A stretch of 64,000 nucleotides of DNA from an uncultured Thiotrichales bacterium. Its GTDB lineage: Bacteria > Pseudomonadota > Gammaproteobacteria > UWMA-0217. Below are positions 12,394 to 16,179 of this stretch, one piece after another. The notes beneath the pieces are model-generated. The model ran no database searches. It saw only the letters and a list, made by a program, of their open reading frames with translations, and had not been told where the DNA came from. The position numbers and the translations under genes are program-made. Each line of letters starts with the position of its first letter. Within the stretch, counting starts at the first letter, position 1. Where the stretch lies: assembly GCA_964620675.1 (NCBI GenBank), contig CAZUJU010000001.1, positions 51,576-115,575 on the forward strand, given 5' to 3'.

Positions 12394-13698
12394 TCAGCCG
12401 TCAGTACGGCGGGCGTTCGCGCGGAGACTCAGAAAATCATCGAAATCGTGCGAGGTGGAAGTTCCGTGTCCGCCCAGGGCGGGCGCTGGCGTTCGCTCGG
12501 CGCCACTTTGCCGCTGCGGCGGGTTGCTGCGCGATTCGTTCGCCGCGCGCGGTGCGGTATCCGCGAGGTTCGGTTTGGTGTTCGGCCCACCCTCGACACC
12601 GCCACCGAAATTGATCTTCCATTCCAGGTCGTTACGCGAGTCGGCATTGCCGAGTGCTTCCTCGCGACTGATCTCGCCCGCCTCGTGCAGTTGCAGGAGC
12701 GCCTGATCGAAGGTTTGCATACCGGTTGCGCGGGTCTTGCTCATGATTTCCTTGATCTCGCCCACCTTTCCGTCGCGGATCAACTCCGCGATGAAAGGCG
12801 TATTGAGCATGACCTCGACCGCCGGAATCCGCGGCGACTTTAATCCGCGTAACAAGCGTTGCGAAACAACGGCCCGCAAGTTCAGCGACAGATCCATCAA
12901 AATGCGGTTGCGCGACTGCGGCGGAAACAGGTTTACGATACGATCCAACGCCTGGTTGGCGTTGACCGCGTGCAAGGTCGACAATACGAGATGCCCGGTA
13001 TCCGCAAAGCGCAACGCCGCCTGCATGGTCGATTCATCGCGAATCTCGCCGACCATGATGACATCGGGCGACTCACGCATTGCCTCGCGCAACGCGTTGT
13101 CGTAACTCAGCGTATCGATCCCGACTTCACGCTGGCCGACGATCGATTGGTTATGCGAGAAAGTGAACTCGATCGGATCCTCGATCGTGAGAATGTGCCC
13201 GGTCATGGTCGCGTTGCGGTAATTGATCATCGACGCCAGGGTGGTCGATTTACCCATGCCCGTGGAGCCCACCACCAGCACCAGCCCCATCCGCGCACAC
13301 ACCAGCTCCTTGACCACCCCGGGTAACCGCAGGGCGTCCAGCTCCGGGATCCGGTGGCTGATAAAGCGGATGACCATCGAGACTTCGCCACGCTGCAGAT
13401 AAACATTGACCCGGAACCGCCCCACTTTGGAAACCGCCGTGCCGAAATTCAGTTCGAGGTTGCGCTCGAATTCCGCTTGTTGCTTCGGGGTCATGATCTC
13501 GTACGCCAGCCGCCGGACCAACCCGGGCGCGAGGGGTTTGTCAGTAAGCCGGCGTACCTCACCCTGCGCCTTCACCGAGGGCGGCGCACCGGTGGTCAGA
13601 AAGATATCCGAGGCGCCCTGTGCCGCCATATAACGCAAGTAGCTCTCAAGCGCCGGGCGCTTCTCGGTTGAATCGGTGCTGATCAACGCGTCCGACAT
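12394..13698 (-). CDS. PilT/PilU-family type IV pilus retraction ATPase paralog with a ~70 aa low-complexity C-terminal extension.
   Basis: Walker A GSTGMGKST, Walker B DVIMVGEIRD and His box TLHAVNANQALDRIVN. N-terminal domain GASDIFLTTGAPPSVKAQGEV. The C-terminal tail GGVEGGPNTKPNLADTAPRAANESRSNPPQRQSGAERTPAPALGGHG... looks disordered. ATG at 13698 with an AGGAAA RBS; the track start at 13725 is GTG. Confidence 0.75.
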   Translation of the reverse strand: MSDALISTDSTEKRPALESYLRYMAAQGASDIFLTTGAPPSVKAQGEVRRLTDKPLAPGLVRRLAYEIMTPKQQAEFERNLELNFGTAVSKVGRFRVNVYLQRGEVSMVIRFISHRIPELDALRLPGVVKELVCARMGLVLVVGSTGMGKSTTLASMINYRNATMTGHILTIEDPIEFTFSHNQSIVGQREVGIDTLSYDNALREAMRESPDVIMVGEIRDESTMQAALRFADTGHLVLSTLHAVNANQALDRIVNLFPPQSRNRILMDLSLNLRAVVSQRLLRGLKSPRIPAVEVMLNTPFIAELIRDGKVGEIKEIMSKTRATGMQTFDQALLQLHEAGEISREEALGNADSRNDLEWKINFGGGVEGGPNTKPNLADTAPRAANESRSNPPQRQSGAERTPAPALGGHGTSTSHDFDDFLSLRANARRTDG

Positions 13699-13936
13699 AC
13701 CGCAAGTTTCCTGGCCGACGCCCACAATATGGCGTTGCGTTTAATAGGTTTTTTCATATCCACCAACTGGTTACTCTGCGAGGCGTGCCGCCTTGGACAA
13801 CGCCGCATTCAAACTGAAGAAGGGGCATCATAGCGCTGGCCCCGCGGCTTGGATATCCGGCGTCGAACTCATCGATCGCGGGCGCCGGTAAATGCGACCC
13901 GTGCCGCGATCATGAGTCTCGAATCCGGGCGCGACG

Positions 13937-15103
13937 CTAACGCATCAGATCCTGATCCGAGGGTGGCGGTTGCACCATCAGCGCCTCGGTGCCTTCAAGC
14001 AACGCCTTGCTGGTGGACCGCTTGCTTTCGAGCTTGATCTTCAAGCGTAGGTTGTTGACCGAATCGGCATGCCGCAGCGCCTCCTGGTAAGTGATCGCGC
14101 CCGTTTCGTAGAGGTCGAACAGCGCTTGGTCGAAGGTCTTCATGCCCTGTTCGCGCGAGTTTTGCACCAACTCCTTCATATCCGGAATCCGGCCTTTGAG
14201 AATCAATTCCGCCATCAGCGGGGTATTCAGCAACACCTCTACGGCCGGCACCCGACCGTCCCCATCGGCGCGGCGCACCAACCGCTGCGACAAGACCGCG
14301 CGCAGATTCATAGAGAGGTCCATTTGCACCTGGGCGCGACGGTCCTCGGGGAAAAAATTCAACACCCGCTCCATTGCCTGATTGGCGCTGTTCGCATGCA
14401 CCGTGGACATGCACAGGTGCCCGGTCTCGGCGAAGGTGATCGCATAATCCATCGCGGCACGGTCACGGATCTCGCCGAGCACGATCACATCCGGCGCCTG
14501 CCGCAGCGCATTTTTCAAGGCCACCTCATAGGACTCGGTGTCGATGCCGATCTCGCGTTGGGTCACGATGCATTGATCGTGCTCGTGCACGAATTCGACC
14601 GGATCCTCGATCGTAATGATGTGGCCGCGACTGGTGCGATTGCGAAATCCCAACAGCGCCGCGAGGGTGCTCGATTTCCCGGAGCCGGTCGCACCGACCA
14701 CAAGCACCAACCCGCGCCGCATCATCGCCACTTCGCGCAACGACGAGGGCAGACCGAGTTCTTCGAAGGTCGGGATCTGGTCGTTGATCCGGCGCAACAC
14801 CATCCCGTAAAACCCGCGTTGCATAAAGGCGCTGACCCGAAACCGTGACACCCCGGTCACGGCGATACTGAAGCCGGTCTCCTGATGCTTTTCGAACTCG
14901 CTCAACTGGCGATCGTTCATGAGTGCGCGCGCCAGCATCTGGGTATGTGTCGGCGTAAGCTTATGCTGCGTGATCGGTTGCAGCAGCCCGTTTACCTTCA
15001 TGCTCGGCGGGGCACCAGCGGTGATGAATAAATCCGAGCCCTGCTGTTCTACCATCGTGCGTAACAACTCATGCACGAATTCAATGGCTTTTGCACGATC
15101 CAT
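13937..15103 (-). CDS. pilU: Type IV pilus ATPase PilU.
   Basis: 388 aa. GATGSGKSS Walker A, TVHANSANQAMERV His box, LMAELILKGR in place of the PilT AIRNLIRE motif. Immediately downstream of pilT, separated by 41 bp. Confidence 0.85.
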   Translation of the reverse strand: MDRAKAIEFVHELLRTMVEQQGSDLFITAGAPPSMKVNGLLQPITQHKLTPTHTQMLARALMNDRQLSEFEKHQETGFSIAVTGVSRFRVSAFMQRGFYGMVLRRINDQIPTFEELGLPSSLREVAMMRRGLVLVVGATGSGKSSTLAALLGFRNRTSRGHIITIEDPVEFVHEHDQCIVTQREIGIDTESYEVALKNALRQAPDVIVLGEIRDRAAMDYAITFAETGHLCMSTVHANSANQAMERVLNFFPEDRRAQVQMDLSMNLRAVLSQRLVRRADGDGRVPAVEVLLNTPLMAELILKGRIPDMKELVQNSREQGMKTFDQALFDLYETGAITYQEALRHADSVNNLRLKIKLESKRSTSKALLEGTEALMVQPPPSDQDLMR

Positions 15104-15144
15104 CGTAGTTTCCCGTTACCTCGAGAGTGGCCGTTGACGCGTCA

Positions 15145-16179
15145 TCAGAGCGAATCTGGTGCGACTGCACGCAGTCGCGCCTCTTCACGCGTGACCGTGC
15201 CCTTGGCCAGGAGATTCTTGAGTCCCTGATCGAGTGTGATCATACCCTCACGCTGACCGGTTTGAATTGCCGAGTACATTTGCGCGATCTTGCCTTCCCG
15301 GATCAAATTGCGGATCGCCGGCGTGCCGATCATGATTTCATGCGCTGCGACGCGCCCACCGCCGACCTTCTTAAGCAGGGTCTGCGAGATGACCGCGCGC
15401 AGCGACTCCGAGAGCATCGCCCGCACCATGTCTTTTTCCTCGGCCGGAAACACATCGACGATACGGTCGATCGTTTTTGCGGCCGAGGTGGTGTGCAAGG
15501 TGCCGAACACCAGGTGGCCGGTTTCCGCGGCGGTCAAGGCGAGACGGATGGTCTCAAGGTCCCGCATTTCGCCGACCAGGATCGTATCGGGGTCCTCACG
15601 CAAGGCCGAGCGCAGCGCGGCGTTGAAACTATGGGTATCGCGATGGACTTCACGCTGATTGACCAGACACTTTTTCGATTCATGCACGAATTCGATCGGG
15701 TCTTCGATGGTCAGGATATGCCCGAACTCGCTGTCGTTCTTGTGGTTGATCATCGCCGCCAGCGTGGTCGATTTGCCCGATCCGGTCGGCCCGGTCACCA
15801 GAACCAAACCACGCGGGAGACCGGAGATCTTCTTAAAAACCTCGGGTGCGTCGAGGTCTTCGAGTGTCAGCACCCGCGACGGAATGGTGCGGAATACCGC
15901 CCCGGCGCCACGATCATGCGTGAACGCGTTGACGCGAAACCGTGCCAACTCCTTCACTTCAAAAGAAAAATCTGTTTCGAGAAACTCTTCGTAGTCCTTG
16001 CGCTGCTTGTCGGACATGATGTCGTACACCATCGCGTGAACGTCCTTGTGCGACAATAGCGCGGCATTGAGGCGGCGGATGTCGCCATCGATCCTGACCA
16101 TCGGCGGCAAGCCGGCCGAGAGGTGGAGGTCAGAGGCACCGTTTTTGACACCAAATGCAAGAAGCTGCGTAATATCCAT
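15145..16179 (-). CDS. pilT: Twitching motility ATPase PilT.
   Basis: 344 aa. MDITQLLAFGVKNGASDLHLSAGLPPMVRIDGD, GPTGSGKST, TLHTTSAAKTIDRIVDVF and AIRNLIREGK, all canonical PilT. Confidence 0.9.
   Translation of the reverse strand: MDITQLLAFGVKNGASDLHLSAGLPPMVRIDGDIRRLNAALLSHKDVHAMVYDIMSDKQRKDYEEFLETDFSFEVKELARFRVNAFTHDRGAGAVFRTIPSRVLTLEDLDAPEVFKKISGLPRGLVLVTGPTGSGKSTTLAAMINHKNDSEFGHILTIEDPIEFVHESKKCLVNQREVHRDTHSFNAALRSALREDPDTILVGEMRDLETIRLALTAAETGHLVFGTLHTTSAAKTIDRIVDVFPAEEKDMVRAMLSESLRAVISQTLLKKVGGGRVAAHEIMIGTPAIRNLIREGKIAQMYSAIQTGQREGMITLDQGLKNLLAKGTVTREEARLRAVAPDSL

Follow-up and report, generated by a model that had tools for sequence, protein, structure and literature searches.

What is the role of a third retraction ATPase, encoded directly behind pilT and pilU and ending in a long tail of low complexity? 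The question is raised by a 64,000-bp stretch of DNA from an uncultured Thiotrichales bacterium (contig CAZUJU010000001.1, positions 51,576–115,575), hereafter called the window, to which the coordinates below refer unless another locus is named. On its minus strand, pilT (15145–16179, 344 aa), encoding the primary retraction ATPase of the type IVa pilus, is followed by canonical pilU (13937–15103, 388 aa) and by a third gene, the product of which we call P3 (12394–13698, 434 aa with a 70-residue tail); all features of P3 described below lie on the same strand. We are nearly certain that P3 is a paralog of PilU type, with a predicted functional ATPase core and with a tail that is translated and in part constrained. 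With moderate confidence, we predict it to be an accessory retraction motor of the PilU type, which an elongated PilU-like arm would tether. How PilT and PilU are coordinated is a current question, and recent work argues that the C-terminal arm of PilU couples the two rings; a widespread third paralog equipped with a hinge, a linker and an end motif would offer a natural comparison by which to test the tether model and whether more than two rings can cooperate.

Identification of the third PilT/PilU-family gene

The products of all three genes pass the curated cutoff (319.1 bits) of the TIGR01420 model ('PilT/PilU family type 4a pilus ATPase'; PilT: 499.6, PilU: 450.0, P3: 434.7 bits), and all three alike match the Pfam T2SSE family. 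The alignment of P3 to TIGR01420 spans model positions 2–343 of 343, and its score against PF00437 is 140.1 bits (cutoff 24.9). The first-pass annotation of this DNA, made from the letters alone, had proposed three tandem PilT-family ATPases, with the AIRNLIRE motif in PilT, and both the open reading frames (ORFs) and the above scores agree with it; the motif lies within TPAIRNLIREGK of PilT. Its description of the third protein as PilU-like is likewise borne out by the intact motifs and by the pairwise identities (P3–PilU: 51%, P3–PilT: 45%, PilU–PilT: 41%), and the Walker A motif GSTGMGKST, the His box TLHAVNANQALDRIVN and the tail sequence that it quoted were all found in the translation of P3.

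We place the start of P3 at the ATG at 13698, which is preceded by AGGAAA; the resulting 434 aa is the length of an identical NCBI protein, recorded as 'MAG: PilT/PilU family type 4a pilus ATPase [Thiotrichales bacterium]' (MAG, metagenome-assembled genome). An alternative start, the GTG at 13725, would give a protein of 443 aa and a gap of 211 bp to pilU. The annotation had combined the length obtained with the ATG, which stands, with the gap obtained with the GTG; the true gap is 238 bp.

Sequence and predicted structure of the P3 core

The core of P3 (residues 1–364; 12607–13698) comprises an N-terminal domain and a RecA-like ATPase domain, both covered by TIGR01420. In the AlphaFold2 (AF2) model built from an alignment of 89 sequences, it assumes the two-domain PilT fold with a predicted local distance difference test (pLDDT) score above 90. 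Foldseek identified the P. aeruginosa PilU structure (9n32) as the best match of this model (TM-score 0.95, root-mean-square deviation 1.7 Å, 50% identity), followed by PilT4, PilT2 and P. aeruginosa PilT. The nucleotide-binding and catalytic motifs are intact, namely the Walker A P-loop GSTGMGKST (residues 144–152; 13243–13269), the Asp box IEDPIEF, the Walker B motif DVIMVGEIRD and the His box GHLVLSTLHAVNANQALDRI, and the residues G144, T146, G147, G149, K150, S151, E173, D174, P175, E177, G217, E218, R220 and H236 are invariant in 89 members of the clade to which P3 belongs (see below). The P-loop methionine M148, which takes the place of a serine in the clade consensus GATGSGKST, is unusual but probably harmless, because this position is variable in the P-loop pattern. 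Since the catalytic motifs are intact, P3 most likely hydrolyzes ATP.

P3 shares with PilU the NTPxxAELI and MQTFDQAL segments, and with PilT the family, the fold and the catalytic motifs, but it differs from PilT in the C-terminal extension and in the replacement of AIRNLIRE by FIAELIRD (YISELIRK in the clade consensus). The AIRNLIRE motif is thought to serve PilT in engaging the PilC platform; without it P3, like PilU, should be an accessory motor unable to act on the machine alone.

The most characteristic element of P3 is its signature ADSRNDLEWKINFGGG (residues 352–367; 12598–12645), comprising the last helix of the core and a glycine hinge. It follows the pattern ADSRNxLEW(R/K)INFGGG and stands in place of the ..LRLxIKL helix of canonical PilU. 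Within the clade, D353, S354, L358 and W360 are invariant, and F364, G365 and G366 are found in at least 90% of the members. The last helix of P3 (LEWKINF) carries an N at the position occupied by the conserved ..IKL lysine in canonical PilU. The PilU encoded in the window exhibits the canonical helix ..ADSVNNLRLKIKL (..ADSxNxLRLxIKL, as in P. aeruginosa PilU), followed by a 30-residue C-terminal extension, ESKRSTSKALLEGTEALMVQPPPSDQDLMR. Thus, the earlier statement that a tail is absent from PilT and PilU holds for PilT and fails for PilU. Across 48 canonical PilU sequences the extension after ..IKL measures 18–32 aa and closes in a hydrophobic/acidic pattern, e.g. LLDDTQDLKMEE, or LLEGTEALMV in the window.

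The P3 clade: distribution, synteny and phylogeny

Nearly all of the best 120 database matches to P3 share the signature in the form ADSRxxLEW(R/K)(I/M)NFGGG. Their hosts are Ectothiorhodospira, Thioalkalivibrio and gammaproteobacterial metagenomes, and most of them are annotated as 'PilU' or 'PilT/PilU family'; two distinct proteins are thus merged under the name 'PilU' in Ectothiorhodospiraceae, Thioalkalivibrio and related MAGs. The tailed paralog is not confined to one genome: the tandem recurs in cultured Ectothiorhodospira and Thioalkalivibrio and in many MAGs. A scan of contigs with the single protein mostly returned betaproteobacterial canonical PilU via shared peptides, leaving only about 20 informative loci out of 80. 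In L001–L006, L055 and L081–L085, an EW-type P3 gene is immediately preceded by canonical pilU, with pilT further upstream wherever the contig reaches, and a tandem with a variant third gene is found in L008, L010, L011, L013 and L064. Besides the window, more than 15 loci have P3 in the third place of a pilT-pilU-P3 cluster. In the four loci with gene calls (Ectothiorhodospira sp. BSL-9, Thioalkalivibrio thiocyanodenitrificans and the two closest MAGs) the cluster is flanked by the same gene families as in the window: a PLP-binding (pyridoxal phosphate-binding) yggS-type gene, proC, yggT and a DUF167-type gene on one side, and a dihydroorotase-like gene, pyrB, pyrR, ruvX and yqgE on the other.

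The first-pass annotation had suggested a phylogeny as a check, and its outcome agrees with a distinct third paralog. In a neighbor-joining tree of 78 sequences (200 bootstraps, midpoint rooting only), PilT (100%), canonical PilU (100%) and the EW-type P3 sequences (96%) form separate clades, as do the tail-less third genes (92%) and a solitary group from Burkholderiales (97.5%); the PilT and the canonical PilU clade both exclude P3, which co-occurs with canonical PilU in the same genome. Because these clades are separate and well supported, the duplication must be old, and P3 has been retained beside PilU rather than replacing it. In a library of representatives clustered at 50% identity, the P3 clade is reduced to about a single entry bearing the exact signature (P0169), which indicates that the clade is compact, with members more than 50% identical to one another, and yields no member count.

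By these indications, P3 is a conserved variant and not a local oddity. Already known are the protein itself, listed in public databases by a generic family name, and its kind, an extra PilT/PilU paralog with a disordered PilU-type tail. What seems to be new is a clade that is always found third in the pilT-pilU cluster and is marked by a helix signature of its own and by a linker ranging from none to about 120 residues. The annotation had considered that P3 might be a common, already characterized duplicate of PilU; common it is, but in the literature searched we found no experimental study or description of this third gammaproteobacterial PilU paralog.

The C-terminal tail of P3

The tail consists of a Gly/Pro/Ala/Arg-rich linker (residues 365–414; 12457–12606), which is disordered as judged by pLDDT and evolves fast, and of the C-terminal motif SHDFDDFLSLRANARRTDG (residues 415–434; 12397–12456), a predicted amphipathic helix that we propose as a docking motif. 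The AF2 model assigns pLDDT below 50 to residues 369–414, in accord with the disorder that the first-pass annotation expected for this ~70-residue extension, and a helix to residues 416–431 (block mean pLDDT ~66 for 421–430).

The closest orthologs of P3 are found in two MAGs, L084 (88% identity, 434 aa) and L085 (74%, 414 aa). From the codon alignment of P3 with L084 we calculated the proportions of nonsynonymous (pN) and synonymous (pS) differences for the core, the linker and the last 35 residues. The pN values are 0.041, 0.47 and 0.12, respectively, with pS between 0.57 and 0.73 (linker: 0.57, last 35 residues: 0.73), which corresponds to ratios of roughly 0.03, 0.7 and 0.05, the synonymous sites being near saturation. 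Near the C-terminus, all three proteins carry the motif DFD(D/E/S)FL, followed by an R/A-rich stretch. Could the tail nevertheless be an artefact of annotation or assembly, due to a missed frameshift or stop codon, or belong to a decaying gene? The low complexity of the linker and its quick divergence would fit such an explanation. However, an independent MAG encodes a protein of the same length with the same terminal 35 residues, a third MAG has the shorter protein of 414 aa, which shares the end motif, related end motifs recur in the tails of over 100 clade members, and the G+C content at third codon positions (GC3) of the P3 ORF (0.76) is in line with the neighboring genes. The preservation of the frame across a nearly free linker, up to an end under strong purifying selection, excludes the frameshift that had been named as a possible source of the tail, and the artefact is effectively refuted: as judged from these alignments, the tail is real coding sequence.

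Within the clade, the tails after ..NF comprise 23–127 residues (median 52; 70 in the window), as compared with the 18–32 residues of canonical PilU, and the linker, about 50 residues in P3, ranges from 0 to ~120 in the relatives. The tails are mostly acidic (median net charge -5). A terminal hydrophobic-D-[DE]-hydrophobic motif is present in 53 of the 111 clade members according to a strict pattern and in 67 according to a looser one, at a median distance of 14 residues from the C-terminus; in most cases, x-P-hydrophobic-S and a few basic residues come after it.

The gap between pilU and the P3 gene

The intergenic gap (13699–13936, 238 bp) had been called promoter-like, and we found no grounds for this: it contains no sigma-70-like or terminator-like consensus sites and no Rfam match, and neither its length nor its sequence is conserved, the gaps in the two closest orthologous loci being 115 bp and 43 bp. 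Folding of the gap as a whole is not unusual (z = -0.74), and only a local hairpin stands out (13863–13922, minus strand; -31 kcal/mol, z = -2.8), which starts ~14 nt past the pilU stop codon, has no U-tract, occurs once in the window and is equalled by 2 of 200 shuffled sequences. According to the alignment, this hairpin lies inside an insertion of ~125 bp that is specific to the window and absent from L084 and L085. A promoter, a terminator and a riboswitch were considered and rejected, as the gap has no consensus site or Rfam family and the hairpin belongs to an insertion that the relatives lack. The gap is evidently not conserved as a regulatory region.

Functional prediction

A disordered C-terminal extension is a hallmark of PilU (PMC12607626; bioRxiv 10.1101/2025.10.30.685630): its last ~30 residues are typically missing in PilT, predicted to be disordered and unresolved in the crystal (PMC12607626). 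In V. cholerae, modelling and charge-swap genetics show that the C-terminus of PilU wraps laterally around the hexamer of PilT, with a pairing of K348 of PilU and D2/E53 of PilT and with contacts of I365, D366, M367 and E368 to R35/K36; PilT-PilU retraction requires these contacts (bioRxiv 10.1101/2025.10.30.685630). Retraction activity that depends on PilT is a further defining property of canonical PilU, open to genetics in a pilT Walker A background (PMC6762196). From the alignment of P. aeruginosa PilU and the statement on conservation in the V. cholerae report, we infer that K348 corresponds to the lysine of ..IKL. The PilT encoded in the window keeps D2 and R35–R36 in the N-terminal alignment, and nearly all aligned PilT sequences retain D/E2 and the D(I/V)RR(I/L)N motif, with single R-to-K changes.

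By comparison with these systems, we infer the accessory role of P3 and the binding partner of its tail. In the type IVa pilus, P3 would be the third ATPase of the PilT/PilU family and a hexamer; its gene is retained in third place of the cluster in sulfur-oxidizing and related Gammaproteobacteria. It resembles canonical PilU (9n32, and the proteins of V. cholerae and A. baylyi) in the family model, the fold, the sequence (50–51% identity), the lack of AIRNLIRE and the location in the pilT locus, as well as in a disordered C-terminal extension that closes in an acidic-hydrophobic motif. Its tail may be regarded as an elongated PilU arm, composed of the glycine hinge (NFGGG), the fast-evolving disordered linker and the acidic-hydrophobic end (DFDDFL, a predicted helix), the last of which would tether the hexamer of P3, at the base of the pilus, to that of a partner. 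As the most likely target of this end we propose the basic patch R35/R36 in the N-terminal domain of PilT, the site that docks the acidic end of PilU; PilU itself is the alternative partner. A long linker would allow P3 to reach the docking site from farther off, for instance from behind a PilT-PilU stack. We also considered whether P3 could offer PilU a docking patch like that of PilT, at R49–R50 (aligned to R35–R36 of PilT), and rejected this candidate, as the pair is not conserved in the clade and recurs elsewhere only in P0093.

Several observations weigh against a tethered accessory motor. The net charge of the P3 tail in the window is 0, the neutral extreme of a clade with a median of -5. 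The N in place of the ..IKL lysine implies that the docking of P3 on PilT would not use the full canonical interface. Some third genes end, tail-less, at ..NLEA(K/R)INFG(G) (L011: 5959–7071, L013: 5938–7041, L064: 4388–5443), so that the tail is dispensable in some lineages. With the synonymous sites close to saturated, the ratios of nonsynonymous to synonymous rates (dN/dS) are rough, although the contrast between the regions holds. Finally, the tree has no outgroup, PilB, GspE and DotB being absent from the window and the loci, and leaves the branching order among the non-PilT clades unresolved.

Or perhaps P3 is a modulator rather than a motor, whose end motif competes with the PilU arm for the site on PilT, tuning or limiting the engagement of PilU and so setting the force or frequency of retraction under particular conditions? 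The end of P3 is of the same acidic-hydrophobic type as that of canonical PilU, PilT retains the R35–R36 docking patch, and the 238 bp with a strong hairpin that separate pilU and the P3 gene in the window would permit separate expression. However, the catalytic residues are strictly conserved across the clade, which would not be expected of a pure competitor, and in close relatives, where the genes are 4–115 bp apart, the long gap and the hairpin are missing; we regard this explanation as unlikely. It is distinctly unlikely that the tail, instead of being a tether, serves chiefly as a disordered segment for regulation or auto-inhibition, as suggested for the long C-terminal disordered region of M. 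xanthus PilU. Lengthening of the disordered C-terminus of the M. xanthus protein abolishes its function and truncation restores motility (PMC13584747), and the natural tail-less third genes would be in line with such a role, but strong purifying selection on the end motif next to an almost free linker is the pattern of a tethered binding motif, and the linker length varies about five-fold within the clade.

The first-pass annotation had also suggested that the tailed paralog could couple to another secretion or uptake machine, a link for which we found no evidence. That P3 serves another type IV filament machine elsewhere in the genome (type II secretion, MSHA-like or competence) is very improbable; the one point in its favor is the existence elsewhere of PilT paralogs of unclear assignment (Neisseria PilT2 and Geobacter PilT1-4). 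Against it, the P3 gene lies directly downstream of pilT-pilU in every locus with enough flanking sequence, and the cluster sits between yggS-proC-yggT and the pyr genes wherever gene calls exist; the other pilus genes in the window are only pilG, pilH, pilI and pilJ, which belong to the same type IVa system, and no further secretion genes were detected among the window ORFs scanned.

The prediction of a tethered accessory motor can be taken further, to a rather unlikely architecture in three tiers: PilT on PilC, PilU stacked on PilT, and P3 as a third ring held by its long arms. In such an assembly, the end motif, DFDDFL here and LDDLxPLS in the Thioalkalivibrio ortholog, would either reach past PilU to PilT or grip PilU, and the length of the linker (0–127 residues) would set how and when the third ring engages. 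If true, it would turn the two-motor PilT-PilU model into a modular stack that recruits additional PilU-type rings; if P3 is merely redundant with PilU, the finding would be ordinary.

Relationship to other PilT-family proteins

One parallel to P3 is, by description, PilU of M. xanthus (MXAN_1995), likewise an accessory PilU-type motor with unusually long C-terminal disorder and a short helix near the end (PMC13584747). It comes from another phylum and is not found in the same pilT-pilU tandem arrangement; the comparison is by description only, and the long tail of PilU has been called unique to myxobacteria (PMC13584747). Neisseria PilT2 and Geobacter PilT1-4 resemble P3 as extra PilT-family paralogs that modulate retraction, again compared by description only (PMC10790696; PMC5065972).

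Solitary PilU-like ATPases of the W type from Burkholderiales (L009, L012, L018, L065–L080; the match at ~6001–7250 in most of these loci) find their best match in P3, not in PilU. Like P3, they have a conserved W in the last helix (..NLLWMLEN / ..NLHWLISN), and their low-complexity tails of ~35–200 residues end in a conserved hydrophobic-acidic motif, SF(S/A)EFL(L/I)N(I/V) or DLSSIKLNLDALG, the first of which is close to DFDDFL of P3. Unlike P3, they form a separate clade (the above-mentioned solitary group) and do not neighbor pilT-pilU; nor is Neisseria pilT2 known to be adjacent to pilT-pilU. We examined the gene context of the solitary ATPases as a possible clue to function and discarded it, as it comprises only housekeeping genes (methyltransferase, pseudouridine synthase, aminotransferase, ArsC-family, ABC-F).

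In the wider family, single-domain proteins of 510–616 aa combine an N-terminal ATPase core with 150–250 further residues (P0180, P0191, P0194, P0208–P0213, P0219, P0228), and their number indicates that long C-terminal tails are widespread among PilT-family members. Other proteins, of ~715–745 aa (one of 1024 aa), carry two PilT-family ATPase domains in one chain (P0007, P0011, P0014, P0022, P0025, P0026, P0030, P0164–P0168); such fusions would join PilT to PilT, or PilT to PilU, covalently.

Genomic neighborhood and other genes of the window

Beyond the pilus ATPases and the pyr genes, the block runs on with a tonB-like gene, gshB, pilG, pilH, pilI and pilJ. The Pil-Chp genes, located at 2789–6310 (minus strand) and 6436–8419 (plus strand), comprise pilJ (a methyl-accepting chemotaxis protein with the PilJ N-terminal domain), pilI (CheW), pilH and pilG. 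We take the entire block (pilG-pilJ, gshB, tonB-like, yqgE, ruvX, pyrR, pyrB, pyrC-like, the pilus ATPases, yggS, proC and yggT) to mirror the pilG / pilT-pilU region of P. aeruginosa.

Three ORFs of the window have no Pfam match at E ≤ 1e-5: 1203–2030 (plus strand), 21897–23105 (minus strand) and 43697–44218 (plus strand). The second of these (402 aa) exhibits a GC3 of 0.61, as compared with ~0.75 in its neighbors, and the adjacent small ORF at 23216–23551 a GC3 of 0.43. The region 41120–63847 encodes housekeeping functions, including gpsA, secB, glmS, the F1Fo ATP synthase operon, parB, rsmG, mnmG and mnmE, i.e. kinds of genes that are usually found near the origin of replication.

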